64,000 nucleotides of DNA from Candidatus Wallbacteria bacterium (GTDB lineage Bacteria; Muiribacteriota; UBA6191; JACPRK01): assembly GCA_016190005.1 (NCBI GenBank), contig JACPRK010000139.1, forward strand, positions 24,717-88,716, given 5' to 3'. This document shows positions 3,098-50,523 of this stretch, in pieces; the first letter of the stretch is position 1, and each line of letters begins with the position of its first letter. Under the pieces are notes generated by a model. The model was not told where the DNA came from and did not search any database. It was given only the letters and a program-made list of their open reading frames with translations. The translations under genes were made by a program, and so were the position numbers.

Positions 3098-3667
3098 ATG
3101 GCTGCACCGAGCTTGTTCGCCGAACGGTGGCTACGCACGCTGATGGTGGCGGCGATCCTCGGCTGGGCGGCCCCGCCGGTACCGGCTCAGATGGTCACGC
3201 CGCTGGCCTACCGCGTGAAGGCCGCCTTCGTCTACAACTTCGCGCTCTTCGTCGAGTGGCCGCGTGTTGCGCTGGGGCCCGAGCATCAGACCGTCGTGCT
3301 CGGCATCGTCGGGGACGATCCGCTCGCCACGGAGCTGGAGCAGGTCGACGGCAAGCGGATCGGCACCCGCACGCTCAGGGTCACGCGGCTGGATACCCAG
3401 CAGGAGCTCGGCGGCTGCCACATTCTCTACGTGGGCGCCTCTGAGCGGGAACGCCTTCCGTCCATCCTCGAGCGCGCGGCCGCTCATCACGTTCTGACCG
3501 TCGGCGACATGGCGAGGTTCATCGACAAGGGAGGGATGATCGGGTTCATCATCGAGGGCGAGAGCGTGCGGTTCGAAGTCTGCGTGGCTCGAGCGCAGAA
3601 AGCAGGCCTGAAGCTGAGCGCCAAGCTCCTGCAGGTGGCCCGGCTCGTCGACTGCGGGACCGACTGA
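3098..3667 (+). CDS. YfiR-like periplasmic protein (DUF4154 family)
   Basis: Signal-like N-terminus. Conserved YRVKAAFVYNFALFVEWP ... ILYVGASE ... GMIGFIIEGESVRFEVC pattern typical of DUF4154/YfiR. Start ATG 3098 lies immediately after the receptor stop. Confidence 0.6.
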   Translation: MAAPSLFAERWLRTLMVAAILGWAAPPVPAQMVTPLAYRVKAAFVYNFALFVEWPRVALGPEHQTVVLGIVGDDPLATELEQVDGKRIGTRTLRVTRLDTQQELGGCHILYVGASERERLPSILERAAAHHVLTVGDMARFIDKGGMIGFIIEGESVRFEVCVARAQKAGLKLSAKLLQVARLVDCGTD

Positions 3668-28948: not shown

Positions 28949-30835
28949 ATGCTGAACCTGCTCTTGAAATGCCTCCGAACTCGCGCATCATTACAACCGC
29001 CTCAGCGCCCGGCGTGGTTCGCACTGGCGCTGACCTTCTTGGCTGCAGCGCCGCATGTCGCGGCCGAACCCGTAACCGCATCGCTCGAATTTTCCCGGAA
29101 GGCTGTGCAGCCCGGGCAGACGGTGGAAGGCCTCGTCCGGCTTCGCATCCAGCCGGGCTATCATCTCTACGGCCCGGACGAGACGCAGGGCTTGCCGACC
29201 GCGGTGAAGCTCGTGGTGCCTGCCGGGGTCACAGTGAGCGCGCCGCGCTTCCCGGCGCCGCGAGAGGCCCATTACGAGGCGCTCGGCGGCAAGCTGAGGC
29301 TCTACGAGGATGATATCGCCGTCGGGTTCACGCTCGAGGTAGCGCCGGCGTTTTCCGGCAGCCGCGTAGGTGTGAGCGCGTTGCTCGATTACCAGCCCTG
29401 CACCGATCGCATTTGCGAGCGACCGCGGCAAGGCGTCGAAGCGAGTGCCGGGCTTCCGGTGGTGAGCGTGGCGGCAGCTGCGTCCGCCGACTCGCCCGAG
29501 TTGCCGGGCTCGCCGCTCAGGCAAAACCCTCTACGTGTCGCGCTCGACCGTGGCCTGTTGTGGGCGCTGCTCGCGGCGTTCGGCTGGGGCATCGCGGCCA
29601 GCTTCAGCCCCTGCGTCTATCCGATGATCCCGATCACGGTCTCCTACTTCGGCGGGCAATCGAAGTCCGGAAGCACCGCCCGCAGGGTAGCCCTCGCCTG
29701 TACTTACGTGCTCGGCATGGTCACCACCTACACGGCGGCCGGGGTGGCGGCGGCAAGGATGGGGCGAGACCTGGGAGCCGTCATGGCCAATCCGTGGATG
29801 ATCGGCTCTCTGTCCCTCGTGCTGGTCGCGCTGGCCGGATCGATGTTCGGACTGTATGTGCTTCAACTGCCGCGGGCGCTGACCGGCCGACTGCAGGCCG
29901 ACGACCGCGGTGGCTTTCTCGAAGCTTTCTTCCTGGGGCTGGTCCTGGGCTTCGTGGCGGCGCCCTGCGTGGGACCCTTCGCGGGCAGCATCCTCGTCTT
30001 CGTTGCCCAGTCCGCGGATCCGCTCGTTGGCTCCCTGACGCTGTTCAGCTTCGGCCTCGGGATGGGGATGCTCTTCATCGCCATCGCCGTGTCTTCGGGC
30101 ACCCTTGCGCTGATGCCGCGATCGGGCAAGTGGCTGCTCGCGCTGGAACGCTTCTTCGGGTACGTGCTGATCGGCATGGCGATTTACCTGGTTTCGAATG
30201 TCGTCGCGGCATCGGTGGCGACCTGGTTGTTCGGCGCCTACCTGGTCGCCGGCGGGACGTACCTGGGCGCCTTCATGCCCGTGCCAGCCGGGGCAAGCGG
30301 CTGGACACGGATGACCCAGGCCGCGGCGATCGTCATGGCTTCGACAGGCGTAGCCACCGTCATGTCGGGTACACCGTGGAACGGCGCCTTGCGCGAGGCA
30401 GCACGGCATGAGGCGGCCACGAACGGACGCGTGCTCGCCGAAGAGAGTGAAGGCATCCGCTGGTTCCGTTCACTCGAGGAGGCCAGGACCGAAGCCACCC
30501 GGACCGGCAAGCCGATCTTCGCCGATTTCTACGCAGACTGGTGTGTGCCTTGCCGCCTGATGGACCGCACGACGTTTCGAGATTCCCGGGTCGTGAAGGC
30601 CATGGAAGCGTTCATCGCCCTGAAAGCAGACTGTACGCAGCCGAAGATGCCGGCGGCCCGTTACAAGAATGACGTGTTGAAGTCCCCCGTCATGCCCTAC
30701 CTGGCCTTCTTCGGCCCGGCCGGCAACCCGCTTCCCGCCGATTCCATCGAGGGCTATACCGATGCTTCCGAGCTGCTCGCCGCGCTACATTCCGTCGCTG
30801 GGCGCTTTCAGCCACACCGGCAAGACCGCCAATGA
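28949..30835 (+). CDS. dsbD: thiol:disulfide interchange protein DsbD (alpha, CcdA-like transmembrane and thioredoxin domains)
   Basis: Periplasmic N-terminal domain with ...YQPCTDRICERP. Transmembrane core with SFSPCVYPMIPI and AAPCVGPF Cys motifs. C-terminal thioredoxin motif ADWCVPCRLMD. Confidence 0.85.
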   Translation: MLNLLLKCLRTRASLQPPQRPAWFALALTFLAAAPHVAAEPVTASLEFSRKAVQPGQTVEGLVRLRIQPGYHLYGPDETQGLPTAVKLVVPAGVTVSAPRFPAPREAHYEALGGKLRLYEDDIAVGFTLEVAPAFSGSRVGVSALLDYQPCTDRICERPRQGVEASAGLPVVSVAAAASADSPELPGSPLRQNPLRVALDRGLLWALLAAFGWGIAASFSPCVYPMIPITVSYFGGQSKSGSTARRVALACTYVLGMVTTYTAAGVAAARMGRDLGAVMANPWMIGSLSLVLVALAGSMFGLYVLQLPRALTGRLQADDRGGFLEAFFLGLVLGFVAAPCVGPFAGSILVFVAQSADPLVGSLTLFSFGLGMGMLFIAIAVSSGTLALMPRSGKWLLALERFFGYVLIGMAIYLVSNVVAASVATWLFGAYLVAGGTYLGAFMPVPAGASGWTRMTQAAAIVMASTGVATVMSGTPWNGALREAARHEAATNGRVLAEESEGIRWFRSLEEARTEATRTGKPIFADFYADWCVPCRLMDRTTFRDSRVVKAMEAFIALKADCTQPKMPAARYKNDVLKSPVMPYLAFFGPAGNPLPADSIEGYTDASELLAALHSVAGRFQPHRQDRQ

Positions 30836-31371
30836 GGTAACGGTTCGCGATGTTCAAAGAGTGTACCGTCGAGAAGCGTACCGTAGCATCCGTGACTGTC
30901 CGCGGTAGCAGGATTACCGACTGACGGCGGTGGAGGTGAACACGCGCCATGCAGTGGATTCTCGGGGACTTGTACAGGACAATGCCGGCGCAATGAGGTA
31001 GCCTACGGCGACGGGTTCTTGAGGTTGCCACTAGAGGCGCGCTTCGCCTTCAAGGGTGGCACGGCAATCAATCATTCTTACTTCGGCGACGACCGGTTCT
31101 CCGAGGACTTGGACTTCACAATCCTGGAGCAGAACCCCCTTCGAGACCGTCCGTGACGGACTCGAGCCCCTCTTCCGCACCGACCTTTCGTCCGTCCGAA
31201 AAGCAGGGAGCGTGATCTCTGTTGACAGTACCCTGCCGCAACGGCGCCGGCCGTGCATCCTCGGCTCCCCGCCGAGTTCTTCTCGCCGGCTCCCCGGAGA
31301 GCCCCGGCTGAAGCGCGACCGTGGATCGCCTTTGAGCGGGGCCTCCGGAGAAGACCTTCAGAAGAAGAATC

Positions 31372-31926
31372 TCACGAGCCGGCCTCGCGGTCGCCGCCGG
31401 AGCCGGCGGGATAGTCGTCCATGGAGCGCCTCCTGCGAGGCGGCTCCTCGGCCGGTGCCGTTGCTTCCTCCGGCGCGGGAAGCTGCTCGATCCACTCGCT
31501 GACCTGCCGGTGAGCTGCTTTCCCTTCCATCGCCCGGCGTCCCCTGCTGTCGTAGATGACGAAGTGAGGCAGCGCCCGAATGCCGTACTGCTCGGCGACG
31601 GGGGAGCTGAAATCGATGCTCCGTGAGCCGGGCCGGTCGACGTTGATCGTCCTCACGGCGATATCCGCGCGGGCCTCGACCAAGCGCTGCAGCCCGGGCG
31701 CGATAGCCCTGCAGGGCGGGCAGTTGCGGCTGTGGAAGTCGAAGATGGTCATCTTTCCCGGCACTCGATATCGCTCGATGTCGATCTCCAATCCGGCTTC
31801 TCCGATGGCTCCGATCGCCGCCCGGGAGCCGGGTCTCAGCATCTTCGCAGTGTCACCCGAGAACGCCAGGCCGCCCAAGACGGCGAAACCCGCGATCACG
31901 GTCCAGATAGGAACTCTCATTCTCAT
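31372..31926 (-). CDS. thioredoxin-like (TlpA/thiol-disulfide oxidoreductase) protein
   Basis: Signal/anchor N-terminus. Redox motif FHSRNCPPCRAIAP within a thioredoxin fold. Confidence 0.7.
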   Translation of the reverse strand: MRMRVPIWTVIAGFAVLGGLAFSGDTAKMLRPGSRAAIGAIGEAGLEIDIERYRVPGKMTIFDFHSRNCPPCRAIAPGLQRLVEARADIAVRTINVDRPGSRSIDFSSPVAEQYGIRALPHFVIYDSRGRRAMEGKAAHRQVSEWIEQLPAPEEATAPAEEPPRRRRSMDDYPAGSGGDREAGS

Positions 31927-32065
31927 ACGACCTCCTTGTCGTCGAATTCACCTGTTACGACGCCGACCAGCTTGCGACGTAACGTCCCAATCCGTTGGTT
32001 CGCGAGGGTGCCGGTTTCGTGGCCCAATCCCTGAGCCCGGCGGTCGGAGCGAATCGGCCGGGCTC

Positions 32066-33508
32066 TCATGCGGCCAGTGCGGCCGCGTTGCTCGCCGGCA
32101 GCTCCACCTGAAACTTAGTGCCGACACCTACTTCCGAGGAGAATTCGATGGTGCCACCATGGGCGACGACGTGACTCCTGGCGATCGCCAGACCCAGACC
32201 CGTGCCTGCCGGCTTTCCGTGCGTGACGAAAGCATCGAACAGTCGCGGTCTCACTTCGGATGGAACTCCCTTGCCCTCGTCAGCGACTTCGAGCAGGATC
32301 CGATGAGGTTGCGAGTCCAGGCGGACCAGGACTCGGCTGCCGGACGAGCTGGCCTCGATGGAGTTCTTGACGAGGTTGTAGACCACGCGCGCCATCTTGG
32401 TCCGGTCGGCCCGGAGGGATGCGCAGCCCTCAATCTCCGCGACGAGCTTCACACCCCGTTCATCGGCCAGCGGGCGCACGTCGCCGAGAATGTCCTCGAT
32501 GAACTCCACGGCGGCGAACTCGTCGAGATGGAGCGTCATGGAGCCCTGGCTGAAAGCCAGAATGTCGTCCGATAGCTCCGTGATCCGCTCTACCTGTTTG
32601 GCAAGGAGGTGGGCCATCGACTCTCGTCGGGGCCGTTCCTGCTGATCGGAGAGAATCCTGGTCAAGCCAAGGATGTTGGAGAGAGGACCGCGGACGTCGT
32701 GGACGATGGTGGCGACCATGCGACCCACCGAGGCCAGCCGCTCGTGAAGGTGGACGCTCGCGACGGCTTCTTGCATTGCATGGAAGTGTCGGGCTAACCG
32801 GCCGAGCTCCGCCGGCGCGAACAACGGCAGCGGAGGACCGGCGCCACCGTTCGCCGCGGCGTCCATCGCTTCGGCGAGCTGACTCAAGGGGCGAACCAGC
32901 ACGCTGGAGAGGATGCCGCCGAGGAGGATCGCGACGACGAGCCCGGCCAGAGTGACGGTTGCGAGCTCCAGGGCGTCGCGCCGCAGGATCGACCGGATTT
33001 CGCCGGCCTTGTAGTCGGCCTCGAGCAGGGCCACGGTACGCCCGCTGCTGTCCTTTACTGGAGCGTATGCGGACATCCACTCGCCGTACTGATCTTCGTA
33101 GATGCCTGTGCTGGCTGTCACCCCTTGCTCGAAGATGGCGAGCATCTCGGGCCTCAGCTCGTACGGCATGCCTATCTGGGCTTCGTGGCGGGTCCTCACG
33201 ATGAACCGCGTCTGGGAGCCCTCGCGCACCAGCGTGTAGATCTCGGTGTTCAGGCCGTTGCCTTGCTCAATCCGACGCAAATAGCCGGCGAGCTTCCTGA
33301 AGTTGGCGCAGCTGCGGTCGCGGCACTTGGCGAGCTCGGCATGGGCCTCACCGTCGAGGGCTTCCGCCGCCGTCACGGCTATCGAGAGTAGCCGGTCCTG
33401 GGCGAGTCGCGTGAGATGTTGCGACTCGCGACGCAGGTGCAGCAGCCCGGTCGTGACGGCGAAGAGAAGTAGCAGCCCTGCGCTCAGCCCAACAATCCTG
33501 ATATGCAT
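32066..33508 (-). CDS. sensor histidine kinase, paralog 1, intact
   Basis: Transmembrane helix, periplasmic sensor region, second transmembrane helix. H-box IVHDVRGPLSNI. HATPase_c N, G1 and G2 motifs (VYNLVKNSIEA, DEGKGVP, GTGLGLAIARS). Confidence 0.85.
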   Translation of the reverse strand: MHIRIVGLSAGLLLLFAVTTGLLHLRRESQHLTRLAQDRLLSIAVTAAEALDGEAHAELAKCRDRSCANFRKLAGYLRRIEQGNGLNTEIYTLVREGSQTRFIVRTRHEAQIGMPYELRPEMLAIFEQGVTASTGIYEDQYGEWMSAYAPVKDSSGRTVALLEADYKAGEIRSILRRDALELATVTLAGLVVAILLGGILSSVLVRPLSQLAEAMDAAANGGAGPPLPLFAPAELGRLARHFHAMQEAVASVHLHERLASVGRMVATIVHDVRGPLSNILGLTRILSDQQERPRRESMAHLLAKQVERITELSDDILAFSQGSMTLHLDEFAAVEFIEDILGDVRPLADERGVKLVAEIEGCASLRADRTKMARVVYNLVKNSIEASSSGSRVLVRLDSQPHRILLEVADEGKGVPSEVRPRLFDAFVTHGKPAGTGLGLAIARSHVVAHGGTIEFSSEVGVGTKFQVELPASNAAALAA

Positions 33509-33571
33509 TCTCCTGCTCCTTGGCTGGATGGGAAACCACAGACGATGCGTCGACTCCTAGACCTGCTTCCG

Positions 33572-33853
33572 TCATTGCTCCTCGACCGGCAGGGCACCAT
33601 CCAGAACGACGCCGTTCTCGACCTGATCCGAGAGGACGTCGAGCGTGAGGAACGTCACGCAAGTTCCGTCCAGCAGGGTCGGATCCGCGAGGAGGGCGTC
33701 TCTGACGCGCTGCCGCACCCCGCGGGTGACTTCCGTGACGGTCGCTCCAATGACACAGAGACCGGGAATCGTGGGGCAGCATGCGAGCACGGGCGATCCG
33801 GGCTTTACCCGAATGAAGAGAGGTACGCGTAGAGGTTTGCTCGAAAGGGTCAT
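33572..33853 (-). CDS. small HicB-like / UPF0150-fold protein, orphan paralog B
   Basis: MTLSSKPLRVPLFIRVKPGSPVLACCPTIPGLCVIGATVTEVTRGVRQRVRDAL is clearly homologous to 26534-26758. It lies just upstream of histidine kinase paralog 1. Confidence 0.45.
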   Translation of the reverse strand: MTLSSKPLRVPLFIRVKPGSPVLACCPTIPGLCVIGATVTEVTRGVRQRVRDALLADPTLLDGTCVTFLTLDVLSDQVENGVVLDGALPVEEQ

Positions 33854-33883
33854 CGCCACGGTCGTTTGGCCCTCGGGTCGCAC

Positions 33884-34486
33884 CTATTCGGACTCCTTCA
33901 AGAGGTCTTCGACTATCCCCTCGACAACCTCCGGCCGGTAGAAGTCCAGGTGGCGTAGCCGGCCTTGTCGATCCAGAAGGGCCACGTAAGGGGTCCCTCG
34001 CGCGCCATAGGACTCGAAAGTAGCCGTCAACTTTCGATCGATGGCCACGGGGAAATTGAACTGATTGCGCTTGACGTACGCCTGAATCCTGTCTGGCGTC
34101 TGGCTGGCCTGATGCTCGAAGGCCACTGCGAGACCGATGACCTGGAGACCTTCTCGCCCGTACCTCTGCTGCATCTTCACGATGTGGGGGTGCGCGGCGT
34201 GGCAGCCCGGACAGATGATCTGGAACATGTCGAGCAGCACGACTTTGCCCTTGAGTTGCTCGAGCGTCAACGGGGAGCCGGCGACCCACTGTTGAACCTG
34301 AAGGACGGGGGCCGGAACGGACTCGGGCACGGGCACGTAGATGCTGCCTCCAGTAGGCGGGGCCGCCTCCGGAGGTGACTGCCGTGTCGAGCCGGAGCCG
34401 GCATCCTGGGCCGGCGCCGTGATCGCTAGCAGCAGGCCCAGCAACGTCGCTTGGAGGCCACGAGAGAAAATCTGGTGTGCAATCAC
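33884..34486 (-). CDS. periplasmic TlpA-like redoxin
   Basis: Signal peptide. LLDMFQIICPGCHAAHP CxxC motif within a thioredoxin/AhpC-TSA-like fold. Confidence 0.7.
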   Translation of the reverse strand: MIAHQIFSRGLQATLLGLLLAITAPAQDAGSGSTRQSPPEAAPPTGGSIYVPVPESVPAPVLQVQQWVAGSPLTLEQLKGKVVLLDMFQIICPGCHAAHPHIVKMQQRYGREGLQVIGLAVAFEHQASQTPDRIQAYVKRNQFNFPVAIDRKLTATFESYGARGTPYVALLDRQGRLRHLDFYRPEVVEGIVEDLLKESE

Positions 34487-34731
34487 GGGAACCTCCTCAA
34501 CGGTGAGGAGCAGCTCGGGACAGCCACTCCGGCGCCGGCTCGTTCGGCCTCTGCCGCTCGTGGAGATTGACGTGTTCGCAGTGTCCGAGGTAACGACACT
34601 TCAGCCGACTACCGGTGCGTCCTCCGAGCGGAGTGCGAATCTCGACGCGCGATGCGTAGACGGGCGCGATGCCGTGGCCACAAGGACGGTGCGCGCCATA
34701 CCAGGAGCAACGGACAGCAGTTGGTTCAGTT

Positions 34732-35979
34732 TCATAGGCCGCAGCAAGAGTCCCCCTGCTGGGTCGCGCCAGCTTCCAGCAGCGTGGCCTGGTAGCCGGC
34801 CTGGCGGACAGCCTCTCTGAGAGCCTGGATGTTTGGCTTCGGACCGGCGGCCGCGAAACCGACCCGGGCGGTCTTCGTGGGGTAATCGACTGCGGCATTG
34901 AGGACCCCCGGAACGCTCAGGAGAGCCTTCCGAACGTGGGCGGTGCACGCTTCGCAGGACATGCCGCCGATGGACAGCGCCTGCTGCCCGGCGGCGACAC
35001 CGGCCGCCGGCGCGGCGGGCGCGTCGCTGATTCCAATGAGACTGCCCGCATAGTGGGGAAACGCTGCGCCTACGATGGCAAGGAAAGTGGCGAGCCAGAG
35101 CCCCATGCGCCCGAGGCGCCGGGTCCTGGGCGCGGGGACGGCACATGCCTCACCCGATGCACATGCCCGTTCACGGGAGTAAGCGAAGTAGAAGCCCGCG
35201 GCCAGAAGCAGTCCGGTGAGCGTCAGAAAGAGCGGGCGCCATTGCTCGAAGACGGCCCCGGCTCCGGCAGCAGACAGACCCAGGCCGACGAGCATCAGCG
35301 GCAGCCAGCAACACGCGGAGGCCACGACGGCGGCAACGACGGAGCCGGCAAGCAGCCAGGATGTCTTCGGGCCGGTCTGGGCGCGGGAGTCTGGCGCGAC
35401 GGTAGACGATTCCTGCCCGGAGACACGGCAGCACGCCTGAATCACCGAGGGTTCTTCCGAGAGAGCCACAGCCGGCCCTCGCTGGTCGGAGGCGACGGAA
35501 TCGGAGCGCGGATCTCCGTGAACCGCCAGCTGTTGACGGACGACCGTTCCCACGTTGCCCAGACAGCATGAGCCTTGCGGGTTCTCGCGCTCGCAGGCGC
35601 ACTGTCCCTCCTTGACCTTCTGCCGGATGTCGTCCGGCACGGTGCTCTTTCCCGTACGGAGAACCTCCTCGCCTATCGAGGCCGCCGAGTGGTTGAAGCA
35701 GTAGCAGACCGGGCAAGAGAGATCGCTCTCTTTCTGCCAGACAGGGACGGCCACGTCGGAGCGAAGAAAGCGCGCCCCCTGGACGGCCCCGAAGTAGACG
35801 ATGTCGCAATTCTGGGCTGGACAGAACCGATACACGCCGCTCCCGACCCTGCCTCGGCAGGGCTCCCTCAAAAGGGAGCTCAAGGTCTCGTTTGCGACGG
35901 TCTTCCCTCGGGTGCCGCAACCGGGACAGTCGGCGGGCGGGCCGCCTGGGGCAGTGATGGAGCAGCACTTTTCGGACAT
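34732..35979 (-). CDS. fusion: N-terminal Cys-rich metal-binding domain + MerT-like transporter + C-terminal MerP-like HMA domain
   Basis: The N-terminal ~150 aa hold 17 Cys (CC, CPGC, CPVCYC, CAC, CC). Transmembrane region with a vicinal Cys pair, ASACCWLPLMLVGLG (MerT-like). C-terminal GMSCEACTAHVRKALLSVPGV is the HMA GMxCxxC motif. The protein ends ...GDSCCGL. Confidence 0.65.
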   Translation of the reverse strand: MSEKCCSITAPGGPPADCPGCGTRGKTVANETLSSLLREPCRGRVGSGVYRFCPAQNCDIVYFGAVQGARFLRSDVAVPVWQKESDLSCPVCYCFNHSAASIGEEVLRTGKSTVPDDIRQKVKEGQCACERENPQGSCCLGNVGTVVRQQLAVHGDPRSDSVASDQRGPAVALSEEPSVIQACCRVSGQESSTVAPDSRAQTGPKTSWLLAGSVVAAVVASACCWLPLMLVGLGLSAAGAGAVFEQWRPLFLTLTGLLLAAGFYFAYSRERACASGEACAVPAPRTRRLGRMGLWLATFLAIVGAAFPHYAGSLIGISDAPAAPAAGVAAGQQALSIGGMSCEACTAHVRKALLSVPGVLNAAVDYPTKTARVGFAAAGPKPNIQALREAVRQAGYQATLLEAGATQQGDSCCGL

Positions 35980-36094
35980 CTTCAGAACCTCCTTACCGAT
36001 GCGCCCCGTACAGTACTGGCATCGGCAACATCCACATCCCCGGGTAGGGGATATGGTCGCCGGGATGAAAAAAAGAGGAGAGGGCGGCGGGGGC

Positions 36095-36403
36095 TCATGT
36101 TTGCTTCAACAGAGTTGCGAGGACCTGGCTGACCTTTTCGAGGCGTTCGTCGCGGCCGCCTTTCATGCAACTGTCCACGCACGCCTTGAGCTCATGCTCC
36201 AACAGATTGGCTGCGACCTGGTTGAGCGCAGCGCGCACCGCGGCCACCTGCAGGAGAATCTCGTCGGCGCAGCGGTGAGCCAGCACCATGGTCCGCAGTG
36301 AACGCACGTGGCCCTCGATGCGCGCGAGACGGTCGGCGAGCCGCTTCTGGGCGTCTTCGTCTAGATAGGGTTTCGGAACCGGTTTCAGGTGGGACTTGGC
36401 CAT
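36095..36403 (-). CDS. csoR: CsoR/RcnR-family metal-sensing transcriptional repressor
   Basis: GAGGAA RBS. MAKSHL...LARIEGHVRSLRTMVLAHRCADEILLQVAAVRAALNQV...HELKACV matches the DUF156 fold and its metal-ligand positions (C, H, C). Confidence 0.8.
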   Translation of the reverse strand: MAKSHLKPVPKPYLDEDAQKRLADRLARIEGHVRSLRTMVLAHRCADEILLQVAAVRAALNQVAANLLEHELKACVDSCMKGGRDERLEKVSQVLATLLKQT

Positions 36404-36428
36404 TGCGTTCCTCACATCTTGTAGTATA

Positions 36429-36447
36429 TATCCCCCCAGGGGGGATA
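36429..36447. promoter_or_regulatory. perfect inverted repeat TATCCCCCC-A-GGGGGGATA; predicted CsoR/RcnR-type operator
   Basis: 9-bp arms with a 1-bp spacer, about 26 nt upstream of the csoR-like start codon. The G/C-tract palindrome is characteristic of CsoR/RcnR operators. Confidence 0.55.
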
Positions 36448-36636
36448 GCAACCCCTTCTCCTTTCCCACGAAACCGAACCCGAGCGCCTTGGCGAGGTGG
36501 CCGAGCAAAGGGGCTCATTCGTCGTCGCCGCTGGTTAGTGTCGGCTCCAGGGATCGCGCTCGGGCGTTACCCGCACGACCGAAGCTCGTCAGTCCTGCTT
36601 GGGAACTACCTGGGGCACGCCGAAAGGAGGCGCTTC

Positions 36637-37614
36637 ATGCAAACACCCTCTGAGCAGAGCCTCTCGAGTAGAGTGCGAACCCTGCTTCGCGCCGCCATCT
36701 TGTCGCTCGTTCTGGTGGCAGCCCTGCTGCACAGGTTTGCACCAGGGGCGCTCGCGGTCGGTTTGGATCTGACGGATCTGCGAGTCCCTCGAGCGGAGCT
36801 GAGAGGCGGCGGCCCACCGAAGGATGGGATTCCGTCGCTGACGGACCCCGCGGTCGTCAGCCCCGAGCAGGTGGATTTCCTGCAGGAAGACGACTGGGTC
36901 CTCGGTGTCGAGCTCGGTGCCCAGGCGCGGGCCTATCCGCTGAAGCTGCTGACCCAGCACGAGGCCGCCAACGACGTGGTGGGCGGCCAGCCGATCGTCG
37001 CTACCTACTGACCGCTCACCGAGAGCGGGGTGGTCTACTCCGCGCGGCTCGACGGTATGCGGCTGACGTTCGGCATCTCCGGACTCCTCTACCGCAGCAA
37101 CGTCGTGCTTTACGATCGCAGAAGCGGCAGCCTCTGGTCCCAGCTCGCGGGCGCCGCGATATCGGGCAAGTACAGTGGCCGGCAGCTCGTGGAGCTCCCG
37201 TCCCTGGTGACGACCTGGGCGAGCTGGCGCCGTGCACGCCCCGACTCGTCGGTCGCTCTGGCTGCAAGTCTCCGGTACTCGGCCGACCCATACGCCGACT
37301 ATTGGGGCTCGTCCGAAACGATGTTCGACGTGGGCCCCATCGACACGCGATTGCCGGCCAAGGCATTGGTGTTCGGCGCCGTCGTGGGGAAACTCGCGAA
37401 GGCGTATCCACTGAGCGAGTTTCCGTCGACCAACCAAGTTATGCGGGACCGAATCGGCAACGTGAAGGTTTGGCTTTCTCGGGGCGAGACCTCCAGGGAC
37501 TTTCGGATGACGGACTTGACGGGCCGGCGAGTGAGCGGATCGGTCATGTACTGGTTCGCCTGGTCGAAGTTCCATCCGGACACTGCCCTCTGGGCCGGGC
37601 CGGCCGGGCAATGA
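36637..37614 (+). CDS. DUF3179-family protein with in-frame UGA (putative selenocysteine) at the first Cys of the conserved TYCPLC motif
   Basis: AAAGGAGG RBS before ATG 36637. Signal/anchor N-terminus. ...LLTQHEAANDVVGGQPIVATY-[TGA 37009-37011]-PLTESGVVYSARLDGMRLTFGISGLLYRSNVVLYDRRSGSLWSQL continues in the same frame as ORF 37030-37614. A hairpin follows 13 nt downstream. Confidence 0.65.
37025..37043 (+). other. putative bacterial SECIS-like hairpin (stem GCGGGG/CUCCGC, loop UGGUCUA)
   Basis: Starts 13 nt 3-prime of the in-frame UGA. The loop contains GGUCU. Confidence 0.45.
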
Positions 37615-37874
37615 CGAGGCTCGAGCCAGCTCTCCGCTACCGGCCGCTGAACTCCATTCGGCCGCCGCGGTATCAACCCAAGAGGAGCTTCGCCACCATG
37701 GCGGAGAGCGCCAGCGCCAAGGGCAGCGTGAAGATTCACGCGAGCGCGATGTTCGCAGCGAAGAGCACGGGCCCGGCGGTCACGAGACTGGCTGAGAAAC
37801 CATGTCCCAGGCTCATGGCCGTGATGCGCGGGCTCATCGTCGACTACGCGGCGCCGGCGGCGGCCACCCAGCAA

Positions 37875-38678
37875 TCACTTGCCACCCTTGCCGGTTTCAG
37901 AGCCGGCAAGCCTCAGCGCTCGCAGCGCATCTACCACGTCGGCGGGCTCGGAGCGCTGGGTGTAATCCGCGCTCACGAATCGATAGCGGATAACGCCCTC
38001 GCGATCCAGAACGAACGTCCCCGGCACCGGAAGCTCCCCGGAGCGGTCCGCATTGAACTTCGCGAGATCGATGCCGAAGCCGCGGTACATCTCCGCCAGC
38101 TTGGCGGGCACCTGGAAGACGAGACCGAACCCACGCGCCACCTGGTTGCCCAGGTCGCTGAGGACCTCGAAATCCAGCTTGAGCTTCTCCTGCGTCATGA
38201 GCGCGAAGTCGGGCTTCTCGGGCGAGATTGCAACCAGAGAGCCCCCGGCTGCCCGAATGTCGGGCAGGGCTTGTTGCAGAGCATCCAGCTCCGCGTTGCA
38301 GTACGGTCACCAATGCCCTCGGTAGAACGCGACGACCACCGGGCCCTTCGCCAGCAATTCGACCGAGGATACGGTCTTACCGCTCGCGTTAGGCAAGCGA
38401 AAGCCGGGCGCCCTCTGCCCGACCTTCAGGCTCCGTTCCTCGACGCCCGTGCGCCGAACTTCGTCCAGGGCGGCTCGCGCCACCGCGGCCTTCTCCGCGG
38501 GCATCTTCTTCGCCGACTCGCTTCGCATGGCGTCCAGCTTCGAGGCCAGCGGCCGCGGATCTGCCTCGGCCGCCGCGGCCACTGCGCCGGCCGCCAGTAA
38601 CGCCGAAAGCAAAATTCGACTCGAGAGCCCAGTCGTTGTGTCGGTTCCTATCTGCCTGATGGCTTTCGACATGAACAC
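37875..38678 (-). CDS. periplasmic peroxiredoxin-like (AhpC/TSA-Redoxin family) protein with in-frame UGA (putative selenocysteine) in a W-U-P-Y-C motif
   Basis: Signal peptide. ...GPVVVAFYRGHW-[TGA 38309-38307]-PYCNAELDALQQALPDIRAAGGSLVAISPEKPDF...TFVLDREGVIRYRF. ORFs 38307-38678 and 37875-38198 are the same frame, and the region between them is open. A hairpin follows 12 nt downstream. Confidence 0.7.
38276..38294 (-). other. putative bacterial SECIS-like hairpin (stem GCGGAGC/GCUCUGC with one G-U pair, loop UGGAU)
   Basis: Begins 12 nt 3-prime of the UGA in the Prx-like gene. Confidence 0.4.
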
Positions 38679-39003
38679 CTCGCGTTCCTCCGTTTCTCGG
38701 ATCAGTATAGTCGCGGCTTCGTCAACCGAGTCGGCGCCTCAATCCTCGGCGGCCGTGATATCGGCGTTCGCGATCAGTCGTGACCGGCTGAACGTGTCGA
38801 CGAGCGCGCCTGCCCGAGGTAACGCGAGAACGAGACTCGACCGGCGCCGTTACCCGGCTCGTCGTGCGACGTCTTCGAAGGTGATGCCGGAGTTGCTCTT
38901 CAGATGTGTCACCTGCCTTCTGGCACCCTGGATCCTGGTCGCGGCCGCCCTTAAGGGCCGGTGGTTTGTCTGCGACGGGCTAATGCGCCACGAGTAACTC
39001 CCG

Positions 39004-40476
39004 ATGCAGCGGAGAATCGTCGGGCTCAGCCTGGGTCTGATGACGTTCTTTGCGGTCGCGACTGGGGTTTTTCACTATCTGCGAACGTCCACGGACCTCG
39101 AAGCCTTGGCTGACCAGCGCCTGCGGTACATCGCCGCCACGGCCGCGGCGGGCCTGGACGGCGATGCCCACGCGGAGCTCAACAGCTGCCTGGACAATCA
39201 GTGCCCCAACTACGCGAAGCTCACCGAGTACCTTCGAGCCGTCCAGACATAAAATGATCTCTCGACGGAGGTGTACACCCTCGCCCGAGAAGGCGACCGA
39301 ACGCGGTTCGTCTTGAGGACCCAGCACGAAGCCGACTTCGGAGTGTCTTACGATCTGCGTCCGGAGATGTTGGCGACGTTCGACGAGGGCAAGGTCGTCA
39401 CAACCGGTGTCTACTCGGATCGCTACGGCTCCTGGTTGTCGGCCTACGCGCCCGTCCGGAACAAACAGGGGAGGGTCGTCGCCTTGCTGGAAGTCGACTA
39501 CAAGGCCGAGGAGCTTGCTGCCATTCTCCGAAGAGACGCGGCGCAGTCGGCGGTGGTTTGGCTCCTGGGGCTGACGGTCACGGGTCTGCTAGCCCTGCGT
39601 CTTTCGCGGCAGATCGCCGAGCCGCTGACGCATCTGACCGCCGCGGTCGACGCCGCCGCATCCGGAGATGAAAGTCATGAGCTGCCGACCGATGCACCGG
39701 CGGAAATCGGGCTCCTGGTCCGCCGCTTCGGCGAGATGCGAGACGCCGTTGCCAACGCCCGGCGGCAGGAGCGGCTGGCGGTCGTGGGGCAGATGGCCGG
39801 AACGATGATCCACGACCTGCGAGGCCCGCTCACGGTGCTCATGGGAATGACCGAGCTGATGCAGGACGAAGAGGACGGCATCGCGCGAAAGCAGCTCGGT
39901 GTGCGCGTGTTCGAGCACATCAATCGCATCGAGGCGATGGCCCGAGACGTTCTCGACTTCTCGCGGGGTGTGTCGAACATGGAGCGAAGCCGGTTCCGCG
40001 CCGCCTCGGTGCTGGAGTCCGTGGCTGCGGACCTTGCCTCGATTGCGACTAGAAAGGGCGTCGTTCTGCGCGTAGACCCCGAGTGGGACGGGCTCGTCTG
40101 GGGGGACCAGGAGAAGCTGCTCAGGCTCGCCCACAACCTCGTGAAGAACGCGATCGAGGCGACGCCAGCAGGAAGGCGAGTGGTGGTGCGAACGCGCGCC
40201 GGCGCCGGGCGATGGCAGCTTCTCGTGGAGGATGAGGGCACCGGGATTTCACCGCAGGTGGCAGCGAGGCTTTTCGAGCCGTTCGCGACTCATGGAAAGT
40301 CGGGAGGTACGGGGCTGGGTCTGGCGATGGTGAAGAGTGTCGCCGAGACTCACGGAGGAAGCGTCACTCACGCGGCGCGGCCGGGCGGCGGCACGGTTTT
40401 CAGGGTCGAGCTGCCGATCGATCGACGCGAGCCTGGCGGGCAGAAGCAGGAAGCCCGTGAGCAAAAGGCCGCGTGA
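39004..40476 (+). pseudogene. sensor histidine kinase, paralog 2, interrupted by an in-frame TAA at 39250-39252
   Basis: 39004-39252 and 39271-40476 are co-linear with paralog 1: ...YLRAVQT-TAA-NDLSTEVYTLAREG against ...YLRRIEQGNGLNTEIYTLVREG. The stop falls where paralog 1 has Gly/Gln. Downstream H-box and ATPase motifs are intact. Confidence 0.55.
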
Positions 40477-40608: not shown

Positions 40609-41196
40609 TCAAGCCGCGGGACGTTTCCTGCGAAGCCGTTTGCCAGCCTCCGGCTCCGCCCAATCGGACTCCAGCTCCACGCCGAGGCCGAGGGCCAGTC
40701 GATTGACGAAGTTGAAGTACGCTGTCACCGCGGCAATGTCGTGAATCGACCGGTCATCGTGCCCGATCTGACGCAGCAGCTCCACGTCGGCTCTCCTCAT
40801 CTCGGCAGGCGTGCGGGTGAGTTTCACCGCGAAATGCAGCATGGCCAGATTAGCCGGCTCCAGACGTGCGGTGCGGAAGTCGCGAGCGATCGCCTCGACG
40901 AGATCCTCGTCGCGGGTGAGACGGAGAAGGACCTCTCCGTGATGCTGCAGTCAGTAGTGGCAGTCGTTGGCCTGCGAAACCACGACCGCGATCATCTCGC
41001 GCTGGCGGCGCGTGAGCGGCGAGCCTCCGAACATCAATGCCTTGTAGAGCGCCATGTGCCCCTCCATCCCTTCCGGATGGACGCCGCTGACGGCCAGGAT
41101 GGCGGGGGCGCTGGCCTGGTCGCCCAGGAGACGTTTGTACGTCTCCTTCAAACGGACCGGGGCTTCGGATGGTTGAATCTCCGTTATCCACGACAT
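40609..41196 (-). CDS. AhpD-like / carboxymuconolactone-decarboxylase-family peroxidase-related protein with in-frame UGA (putative selenocysteine) in a C-H-Y-U motif
   Basis: ...MIAVVVSQANDCHY-[TGA 40953-40951]-LQHHGEVLLRLTRDEDLVEAIARDFRTARLEPANLAMLHFAV... ORFs 40951-41196 and 40609-40842 share a frame, which is open across the gap. A hairpin follows 10 nt downstream. Confidence 0.7.
40921..40940 (-). other. putative bacterial SECIS-like hairpin (7-bp Watson-Crick stem ACGGAGA/UCUCCGU, loop GGUCCU)
   Basis: Begins 10 nt 3-prime of the UGA in the AhpD-like gene. The loop contains GGUC. Confidence 0.45.
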
Positions 41197-49123: not shown

Positions 49124-49966
49124 TCAACCCTTTCGACCGCTTTTTCCCGGCTCGGGTAACGCCCCCGTGCGCGCACGAACGAGGACATAGCCGCCATGCG
49201 GCTCCCGCCAGATCACGACCTCGCACGGAGATCTCGACGCGGCCGGAGACGCAGGGTGCACCACCCGGCGGCTCGTCAGGGAACCGACGCCGAAATCCTC
49301 GAGCCGCAGTTGAAACAGAGACTCCGGGCCGCCCGGTCCCTGCCAGTACGTGTAGGCCACCGGGTGGCTGCCCAGCCGGCACGAGCGGCCGCCCATGAGC
49401 GTGTGCCCGGGTCCGAGTGCCGGGAAGCTCACGGGGAAGCCCATCGAGCTCGACAAGAACTCGGCGACCTGCCGGGGGTCGGAGCCCTTCACCTGCAGAT
49501 GGGGCGTGTTCATGTGATCCTGGGTCGCCAGCAGGGCCAGCGTCTGAAGCGTGGCCTCCTTGTCCGACCGGAGGCTCGAGATCCCGAACCAGACCATCAG
49601 GACCACCAACGCGATCGACGACGCCAGCGCGAGTCGGCGCCCGGCGAAGAGGCCCAGCGACCTCATGCGTCCAGGCGGTCGCGAATCCAGTCTCTGCACC
49701 TGCGGTTCCGCTCCGGCCTCGGGGGGGGCGCATTGGTCCGCAAGCAAGAGCAGCCGCGGCACCAGTCCGGGGGGCACTTCGACCTGCCTCAGCGCGATGC
49801 GCAAGGCCTCGTCCCCACGGATGAGCTCGAGCCATTCCTGCCGGGCCCACTCCGGACCGCGCGCCACGTCTTGCTCCAGTTGACGGCGCACTGGATCATC
49901 GGGCGGCAAGACCGAAGCCTCGGCCATCGCTTGCCGCAGAAGCTGTCGATCGTCGCGGCCGCTCAT
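49124..49966 (-). CDS. anti-sigma factor-like protein with periplasmic C-terminal domain
   Basis: Overlaps the sigma-factor stop by 4 nt. A central transmembrane helix LALASSIALVVLMVWFGI. Position and architecture are typical of ECF anti-sigma factors. Confidence 0.5.
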   Translation of the reverse strand: MSGRDDRQLLRQAMAEASVLPPDDPVRRQLEQDVARGPEWARQEWLELIRGDEALRIALRQVEVPPGLVPRLLLLADQCAPPEAGAEPQVQRLDSRPPGRMRSLGLFAGRRLALASSIALVVLMVWFGISSLRSDKEATLQTLALLATQDHMNTPHLQVKGSDPRQVAEFLSSSMGFPVSFPALGPGHTLMGGRSCRLGSHPVAYTYWQGPGGPESLFQLRLEDFGVGSLTSRRVVHPASPAASRSPCEVVIWREPHGGYVLVRARTGALPEPGKSGRKG

Positions 49967-50523
49967 GGACTCCTCCGCTTCAAGGTAAGAACGTTACCCC
50001 GTTTGCCGGCGCTGTCGTCAAGCCGCTGTCGCAAGAAGCTACGGGCCCGGTGGACCCGAGAGAGCACCGTGCCCAGGGGCAGGTCGAGCTCTCGGGCCGT
50101 CTCCCGGCAACTGACTCCCAGTAACAGGACCATCAGAAACGGGAGCTTGAACCGATCGTCCATGGCGTCGAGTGCCGCTTGCAGCGGCTCCGAGCATTCC
50201 GAATCACCCTCCGACGCGTCCCGTGTGGGCGTGTCGGCGTCCTGGAGCAGCTCGACACTGTCGTCGACCTGGGGACGCCGTCCGAGATCGCGCAGCAGGT
50301 GCGCGTGGCGGAATCGCAGGATTCGGAATAGCCATGCCCGAGCGGAGGACGGTTCCCGCAGATCCGGCAGCGAACGCCAGGCTTCGGTGAAGGTCTCCTG
50401 GACCAGATCCTCCGCTGTTTCGCGGCGGCCCGTCAATCGGAAGGCGATCCGGAAGAGCTCCTCGGAGTGGTCGCGGACGAGCCGTTCGAAGAGGGGCCGG
50501 AGCTCGTTGGGAACGGTCTGCAT
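49963..50523 (-). CDS. ECF-type RNA polymerase sigma factor
   Basis: DLVQETFTEAWRSLPDL...RAWLFRILRFRHAHLLR (region 2) and FLMVLLLGVSCRETARELDLPLGTVLSRVHRARSFLRQRL (region 4). Confidence 0.8.
   Translation of the reverse strand: MQTVPNELRPLFERLVRDHSEELFRIAFRLTGRRETAEDLVQETFTEAWRSLPDLREPSSARAWLFRILRFRHAHLLRDLGRRPQVDDSVELLQDADTPTRDASEGDSECSEPLQAALDAMDDRFKLPFLMVLLLGVSCRETARELDLPLGTVLSRVHRARSFLRQRLDDSAGKRGNVLTLKRRSP

Follow-up and report, generated by a model that had tools for sequence, protein, structure and literature searches.

Is an in-frame TGA in a bacterial gene a stop, a mistake, or a codon for selenocysteine (Sec), and what would a Sec residue say about the protein that carries it? The question is raised by a gene for a DUF3179 protein at positions 36637 to 37614 on the forward strand of a 64-kb stretch of contig from a metagenome-assembled genome (MAG) of Candidatus Wallbacteria, with this whole stretch of 64,000 nucleotides referred to here as the window. 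An earlier note made from the bare sequence had proposed that Sec (U) takes the place of the first Cys in the CPLC motif of DUF3179 and that the gene possibly represents an undescribed selenoprotein family. Comparison with homologs indicates that the TGA at codon 125 is very probably a genuine Sec codon and, with confidence only a shade lower, that 36637..37614 is one gene for a 325-residue DUF3179 selenoprotein, probably membrane-anchored or exported. The Sec assignment is made because the TGA falls on a near-invariant Cys column, 29 orthologs carry TGA at the same place, a hairpin of the Sec insertion sequence (SECIS) type follows it, TGA otherwise serves as a stop in the window, and two nearby genes have TGA at Cys positions. 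The features on which the argument turns are the following.

36623..36630 (+): Shine-Dalgarno sequence AAAGGAGG, 6 nt 5′ of the ATG, from direct reading of the sequence
36637..37614 (+): DUF3179 selenoprotein gene (predicted) of 325 codons, with Sec at codon 125 and a terminal TGA at 37612-37614
36682..36732 (+): N-terminal hydrophobic segment LLRAAILSLVLVAALLH, about residues 16-32, from reading of the sequence
37009..37011 (+): in-frame UGA, codon 125, very probably read as Sec; its column is the near-invariant Cys of C-P-L-C/T
37025..37043 (+): bacterial SECIS-type hairpin with a 6-bp stem and a 7-nt loop, UGGUCUA
37030..37614 (+): GenBank-annotated fragment MBI2944916.1, 194 aa from a GTG start, on the 99,956-bp contig

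Translation of the interval in frame 1 meets a single internal stop, the TGA at codon 125, and the surrounding peptide (...GGQPIVATY*PLTESGVVYS...) gives the motif Y-U-P-L-T. The open reading frame (ORF), the TGA, this motif, the AAAGGAGG ribosome-binding site, and the hairpin with its UGGUCUA loop are all present where the earlier note had placed them. GC content at third codon positions (GC3) is coding-like on both sides of the TGA, and both halves of the gene are kept in six other Sec-form orthologs. When Cys is substituted for the stop, the translation matches Pfam DUF3179 (PF11376) with E=6.9e-73 and 246.1 bits against a cutoff of 27, and the whole profile (1-292 of 292) aligns to residues 62-316 in a match that spans the TGA. 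The family-invariant elements GGPPKDGIP, AYP, HE..ND, C-P-L, FG.SG, YD, SLWSQ, DPY, and YWFAW are all present, with the TGA codon standing at the Cys column. That column is Cys in 118 of 120 database protein homologs, which bears out the claim that U replaces the first Cys of the motif; the family alignment had been named beforehand as the place where the claim could fail. The column three residues further on (+3) in the same 120 homologs holds Cys in 92, Thr in 24, Ser in 2, and Asn in 1. One of the two non-Cys exceptions, P0031, has Trp at the column within a peptide, FWPLTQTGVVY, that resembles the Sec forms, and its Trp is probably a TGA that was translated as Trp. A sample at the DNA level was drawn from 160 related loci, 80 of them from genomes (one per species) and 80 from metagenomes. 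Among the 138 genes scored there, the codon at the column is TGC in 65, TGT in 42, TGA in 29, and AGC in 2, so that close to every relative has either Cys or TGA, and the earlier note's other condition for refutation, a different sense codon in relatives, is not borne out. The two Ser copies (Y-S-P-L-C and F-S-P-L-T) come from Saprospiraceae and Lewinellaceae MAGs (L057 and L063) and may be inactive or functionally diverged.

The 29 TGA codons belong to 29 further DUF3179 genes at 27 loci and fall at exactly the same column. They derive from Desulfobulbia, Syntrophobacteria, Desulfuromonadales, a MAG labelled Cloacimonadota, and many sediment and groundwater metagenomes, and they include one cultured isolate, Geothermobacter hydrogeniphilus HR-1 (L074, on NZ_PPFX01000002.1), whose protein of about 300 aa has the motif W-U-P-L-A. 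Together with the window gene they make up a set of 30 Sec forms, which bears directly on whether the TGA is simply a defect. A pseudogene or a sequencing or assembly error, in which the TGA would be a mutated Cys codon and the gene dead or miscalled, has in its favor that TGA is one base away from both TGC and TGT, that the sequence is a MAG contig, and that GenBank annotates a fragment alone. Nevertheless, this explanation is very unlikely in light of the 29 orthologs that share the TGA column, the coding signal and complete profile match that extend to either side of the codon, the hairpin that is specific to Sec forms, and the two further TGA-at-Cys genes within 4 kb. The TGA is also not an assembly artefact, because the Logan assembly of run SRR12113390, which is separate from the GenBank contig, is identical across the gene including the TGA.

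Another explanation is that TGA is read throughout the genome as Trp or Gly, as in genetic codes 4 and 25, and has no connection to Sec. The MAG is labelled as a candidate phylum, and the ENA gene call P0031 does give W at the orthologous codon. Even so, this code variant has next to no probability, since TGA is the usual stop in the window and ends 22 of the 28 long ORFs with coding-like GC3. In addition, in-frame TGAs within genes fall only on known redox Cys positions, none was seen in the window at Trp or Gly columns of housekeeping genes, and reassignment would leave the requirement for a hairpin unexplained.

The hairpin is a further line of evidence for Sec. In bacteria, the archetypal SECIS element is that of E. 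coli fdhF, a hairpin that lies inside the coding sequence 3′ of the UGA, and SelB recognizes an apical-loop G-U about 20-25 nt after the UGA in such elements. The hairpin in the window starts 13 nt past the TGA and pairs GCGGGG (37025-37030) with CUCCGC (37038-37043) in six pairs, one of them G-U, around a loop at 37031-37037. To compare genes in codon register, with the U of UGA as position 1, stem positions 17-22 were set against positions 30-35. All six pairs form in 22 of the 30 TGA forms and in only 3 of the 107 Cys forms at the same codons, with a mean of 5.4 paired positions in the Sec forms versus 2.9 in the Cys forms (Mann-Whitney P=4e-12). The local folding energy is also lower in the TGA forms than in the Cys forms (P=4e-7) at equal GC content. 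The loop residues G25 and U26 (G37033 and U37034) are invariant in all 30 Sec forms, whereas position 26 in the Cys forms is C in 59, T in 44, and G in 4. In the alignment of 30 sequences, 90% of cells are paired while slid registers all reach 61% or less; compensatory changes occur at four of the six pairs, such as G-C/C-G to C-G/G-C and A-U to C-G; and neither the pairing nor the covariation score is equalled in any of 500 shuffles. The hairpin is conserved with covariation among TGA forms and is specific to them. The earlier note had proposed a search for other members of the family that combine TGA with a downstream hairpin, and such members occur in both genomes and metagenomes.

Several observations count against the Sec reading or temper the evidence for it. 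The codons of the hairpin also encode a conserved S/T-G-V-V-Y-S, so that the nucleotide conservation is partly protein-level; more weight falls on the contrast with Cys forms, in which similar residues are encoded. Folded by itself, the sequence gives unremarkable values (z=-2.6 over 60 nt, z=-1.05 for the isolated 29-nt hairpin), and the minimum free energy (MFE) structure of the 60 nt favors a slightly different apical register. The hairpin is considered to exceed chance because of the comparison of TGA forms with Cys forms, not because of single-sequence folding. Rfam returned no SECIS family, either for the window at gathering thresholds or for 36400-38800 at E<=10. The 30 Sec forms fall mostly into one clade, and their counts are not independent events. 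Finally, none of selA, selB, selC, and selD was found in the 64-kb window, where a motif scan for SelD, SelB, and SelA signatures came back empty, and no tRNA-Sec was found there by ARAGORN or Rfam, which leaves the three TGA-containing genes of the window as the sole grounds from which the organism's competence for Sec would be judged. An extended stem at 37012-37062 from the 60-nt MFE structure was rejected, as the orthologs fold otherwise there, and the apical hairpin alone is claimed. An 87-nt "tRNA-Cys (GCA)" that ARAGORN called at 50130..50216 on the reverse strand was likewise rejected as a tRNA-Sec-like gene; the call is a false one, as it falls within the coding sequence of an ECF sigma factor at 49963..50523 (Sigma70_r2/r4) and has no Rfam tRNA or tRNA-Sec match at E<=10.

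Compared with known elements, the hairpin is like the fdhF archetype in its placement within the coding sequence 3′ of the UGA and in its apical-loop G-U. It is unlike fdhF-type elements in that its sequence is unrelated and matches no Rfam SECIS model, and SelB binding is predicted from the sequence. In the proposed mechanism, SelB carrying Sec-tRNA(Sec) would bind the hairpin at 37025-37043 and Sec would be inserted at the UGA at 37009-37011, a recoding step that draws on the sequence comparison and on the established bacterial mechanism. The hairpin consists of codons for Ser-Gly-Val-Val-Tyr-Ser. Termination competes with Sec insertion at any UGA, and when selenium is short, translation would be expected to end at this UGA and release a 124-residue fragment. 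That competition is established knowledge, and together with the public annotation it lends something to a different reading of the locus, in which a 124-aa protein ends at the TGA and an independent 194-aa protein begins at GTG 37030. Two such products are nonetheless highly improbable. Both the Pfam domain and the predicted fold run through the junction without a break, the supposed GTG start falls within the hairpin with no AGGAGG-like Shine-Dalgarno sequence seen before it, and the Cys homologs are all single chains. The 194-aa GenBank record is an artefact of the TGA having been taken as a stop, and the gene is mis-annotated and cut short. No NCBIfam model matches the DUF3179 protein, which explains why GenBank holds only the piece that follows the TGA.

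Returning to the Sec reading, two further genes close to the DUF3179 gene also have TGA at a redox Cys position, so that three such genes lie within 4.6 kb.

37875..38678 (-): AhpC/TSA-Redoxin gene with an N-terminal leader; TGA 38307-38309 at the active site ...FYRGHW-U-PYC
40609..41196 (-): CMD/AhpD-like "peroxidase-related enzyme" (TIGR01926, E=1.7e-41); TGA 40951-40953 in C-H-Y-U (CxxU)

The first of these has a hairpin, GCGGAGC-UGGAU-GCUCUGC, 12 nt past its TGA, with the stem running from the 16th base when the U of UGA is counted as 1, and the gene fits the catalogued "Prx-like thiol:disulfide oxidoreductase, UxxC" selenoprotein family. The hairpin of the second, ACGGAGAG-GUCC-UUCUCCGU, lies 10 nt past the TGA, and this gene fits the catalogued CMD-like/AhpD-like CxxU selenoprotein families. 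All three genes place an apical loop G-G or G-U about 21-26 nt from the U of UGA, a geometry that is as expected for SelB-dependent bacterial SECIS elements. The organism thus apparently uses Sec elsewhere too.

Does the window gene then reveal a new selenoprotein family? In this respect the earlier note was mistaken, as DUF3179 (PF11376) with the motif UxxC/T already stands in published tables of selenoprotein families predicted in prokaryotes (PMC9312934, Table 1; PMC13188914). The two sources list the family as predicted, not verified, and credit it to Zhang and Gladyshev (2007, Nucleic Acids Research (NAR) 35:4952; PMC1976440). That work is a study of the Olavius algarvensis symbionts in which new families received names such as OS_HP1 (PMC1976440), and the place of DUF3179 in the review tables makes it probable that it is an OS_HP family under a new name. 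The replacement of the second Cys by Thr, which had been singled out in the earlier note, is indeed present in Y-U-P-L-T; it is not novel, being part of the published UxxC/T motif. DUF3179 as a selenoprotein family, the place of its Sec, and the option of Thr at +3 have all been in print since 2007, and the window gene is a further member. It shares with the published selenoproteins the Pfam domain, the Sec at the first Cys of CPLC, the UxxT motif, and a SECIS-like hairpin, and it is, as are the other members, a prediction made in silico only. Nothing fundamental sets it apart: its identity to the nearest Sec form does not exceed 53%, it comes from a MAG labelled Candidatus Wallbacteria, and it has been shortened in GenBank. 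The nearest Sec form found is L002, from the Cloacimonadota-labelled MAG, with 53% identity over the best tblastn segment and 52% over the whole alignment. No functional study of DUF3179 was found in the literature searched (DUF3179, PF11376, pfam11376, IPR021516).

The larger set of sequences does allow the Sec forms to be placed within the family. The residue at +3 in the 30 Sec forms is Thr in 21, Ser in 5, and Ala in 4, and Cys in none; the UxxC form, though part of the published motif, was not met among these 30. The Cys forms of the DNA sample consist of 104 CxxC and 3 CxxT genes, and they are mostly without the six-pair hairpin that the window gene has at the same codons. When 253 domain sequences are compared, nearly all Sec forms have a CxxT protein as their closest Cys relative, even though CxxT accounts for only 25 of the 221 Cys forms in that set. 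A neighbor-joining tree gathers 27 of the 30 Sec forms into one clade. The window gene belongs to this main Sec-form clade, its nearest Cys relatives are the minority CxxT subgroup, and Thr at +3 is a signature of the Sec-using lineage. Members of the CxxT subgroup (for example P0002, P0018, P0022, and P0024) are 35-48% identical to the window protein across the whole domain and share with it the invariant residues, the Thr at +3, and an N-terminal leader. They differ in having Cys (TGC or TGT) for Sec and, in several cases, an extra C-terminal domain of about 150 residues. Because the nearest Cys relatives are of the CxxT type, the Sec lineage can do without the second Cys of CPLC, and a single reactive Cys or Sec appears to suffice for function there. 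One close Sec/Cys pair, L102 copy 1 and P0024 at a distance of 0.21, points to recent switching between the two residues.

Some members of the family have features of their own. The metagenome contigs L088 (TGA 1022-1024 and 3250-3252) and L102 (TGA 1028-1030 and 3250-3252) each have a pair of Sec-form DUF3179 genes separated by about 2.2 kb, and in their SECIS variant AGCGGCGUCGUGUACGACCGC three of the six consensus pairs form, with an alternative bulged register possible. The extra C-terminal domain of about 150 residues occurs in the CxxT-type proteins P0008, P0011, P0018, and P0022 (443-476 aa), which are among the nearest Cys relatives of the Sec clade and for which the precomputed Pfam list contains PF11376 alone; its conserved stretch reads ...LVI(R/H)G.(L/V)RN...H(V/I)(K/R)L.(F/Y)EL(L/V)D..G...

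What the protein does is the harder part of the question. The hydrophobic segment LLRAAILSLVLVAALLH probably serves as a signal anchor or signal peptide, similar hydrophobic leaders stand at the start of homologs, and an Idiomarina DUF3179 member is predicted in the cytoplasmic membrane in a gene table where the term is incidental. The DUF3179 domain would then probably lie outside the cytoplasm. For the fold, the AlphaFold2 (AF2) model of P0002, the closest full-length Cys homolog (48% identity, CPLT), stands in for the window protein. This confident model (predicted local distance difference test (pLDDT) 91; predicted template modelling (pTM) score 0.84) is mostly beta with a lone N-terminal helix at residues 19-35, and it places the motif in a turn between strands 117-124 and 129-134 in P0002 numbering. 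The sequence contains an internal repeat, in which "LGV..G.ARAYP...L" recurs as "FGA..G.AKAYPL". Rieske [2Fe-2S] clusters are held by ligands of the form CxH...CxxH. In DUF3179, an invariant His108 precedes Cys125-x-x-Cys128 by 17 residues, which matches the spacing of the Rieske CxH-x(15-17)-CxxH boxes and may be regarded as a lead from the sequence and a known motif. Unlike a true Rieske site, the window protein reads T-Q-H108...U125-P-L-T128 and the family consensus N-W-H...C-P-L-C, in which the first Rieske Cys is absent. When the two half-domains were searched against Pfam at E<=10, DUF3179 was the sole return. Identity as a Rieske protein was rejected on both counts, the missing CxH...CxxH ligands and the lack of a Pfam Rieske match at that threshold. 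Membership among thioredoxin-fold CxxC/UxxC thiol:disulfide oxidoreductases was rejected as well.

The exchange of Sec for Cys probably marks the key residue of the protein and is the best pointer to the DUF3179 active site. The earlier note had taken Sec to assign a redox function to the family, a step that we infer and do not observe. As a tentative proposal, a possibility that stops short of being probable, DUF3179 proteins would be extracytoplasmic redox enzymes in which Sec125 or Cys125 is the reactive residue and no internal resolving Cys exists. A thiol partner from outside the protein would then resolve the selenium once it had been oxidized to a selenenic acid or a selenenylsulfide. 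The arrangement is like that of the GPx-like UxxT, OsmC-like UxxT, and ArsC-like UxxS proteins, which have a single Sec, Thr or Ser at +3, no resolving Cys, and Cys homologs, and which are listed among the selenoproteins (PMC9312934; PMC13188914).

The genes that adjoin the DUF3179 gene at 28949..36508 make its context in the window an envelope thiol and metal island, to which the two other TGA-containing genes can be added.

28949..30835 (+): DsbD
31372..31926 (-): thioredoxin-like protein
32066..33508 (-): histidine kinase
33884..34486 (-): Redoxin
34732..35979 (-): unusual fusion of zf_CopZ, MerT, and HMA, a "cation transporter" in GenBank
36095..36508 (-): CsoR/RcnR-type metal repressor, divergent to the DUF3179 gene across a 128-bp intergenic region

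These metal-related neighbors, together with the Rieske-like spacing of His108 and Cys125, form the case for an alternative in which residue 125 and the invariant His108, Glu109, and Asp113 would form a degenerate Rieske-like site, with Sec125 or Cys125 serving mainly to bind a metal or metalloid such as Cu, Hg, or Zn and not to catalyze a redox reaction. We regard this role as unlikely, though by no means as remote as the explanations that deny Sec. The metal context is not conserved at other loci, the second Cys ligand is absent from the Sec forms and from the CxxT subgroup, and the first Rieske Cys is missing. Three results weigh against reading any function from context or fold. A Pfam scan of the ORFs that flank the gene, 107 at 27 Sec-form loci and 150 at about 75 Cys-form loci, found no conserved neighbor, with the commonest Pfam family seen in just 5 ORFs. 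The P0002 model resembles Rieske domains weakly, and Foldseek against the PDB returned nothing significant. A sequence-profile search of the PDB found no homolog.

On the far side of the DUF3179 gene, a HAMP-HisKA-HATPase sensor kinase at 39004..40476 (+) has an in-frame TAA at 39250-39252 after 82 codons, and its frame resumes as a 401-codon ORF from 39271. Its N terminus is paralogous to the kinase at 32066..33508, and the interruption may reflect a pseudogene, an error of sequencing, or the presence of two ORFs.

A broader and equally doubtful proposal would join these strands into an extracytoplasmic enzyme class built on a Rieske-like beta domain without an Fe-S cluster, in which Cys or Sec125 with His108, Glu109, Asn112, and Asp113 would form a nucleophile or a chalcogen or metal center, and in which the window gene would be part of an island for envelope stress and metals that depends on selenium. 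If this proposal were true, the island would comprise the Prx-like and AhpD-like selenoproteins, DsbD, the MerT-HMA fusion, and the CsoR-type repressor. The chemistry would call for a single reactive residue with a reductant from outside and for no internal dithiol, because the Sec forms have Thr, Ser, or Ala at +3 and their nearest Cys relatives are CxxT.

The analysis changes selenoprotein biology little, as the catalogues already contained the family with its Sec position and even the Thr variant of its motif, and the gene illustrates a recurring annotation failure. What is now supplied is a set of 30 Sec-form sequences with a testable SECIS consensus and, in Geothermobacter hydrogeniphilus HR-1, a cultured organism for verifying Sec insertion into a DUF3179 protein. 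Hypotheses on function are narrowed to a protein for which one Cys or Sec would be enough and the second Cys dispensable, which is probably extracytoplasmic, has no conserved operon partner, and has a fold that is weakly Rieske-like. DUF3179 is widespread, and the remaining value of the finding lies in the function of the family and in the experimental handles that are now at hand to approach it.

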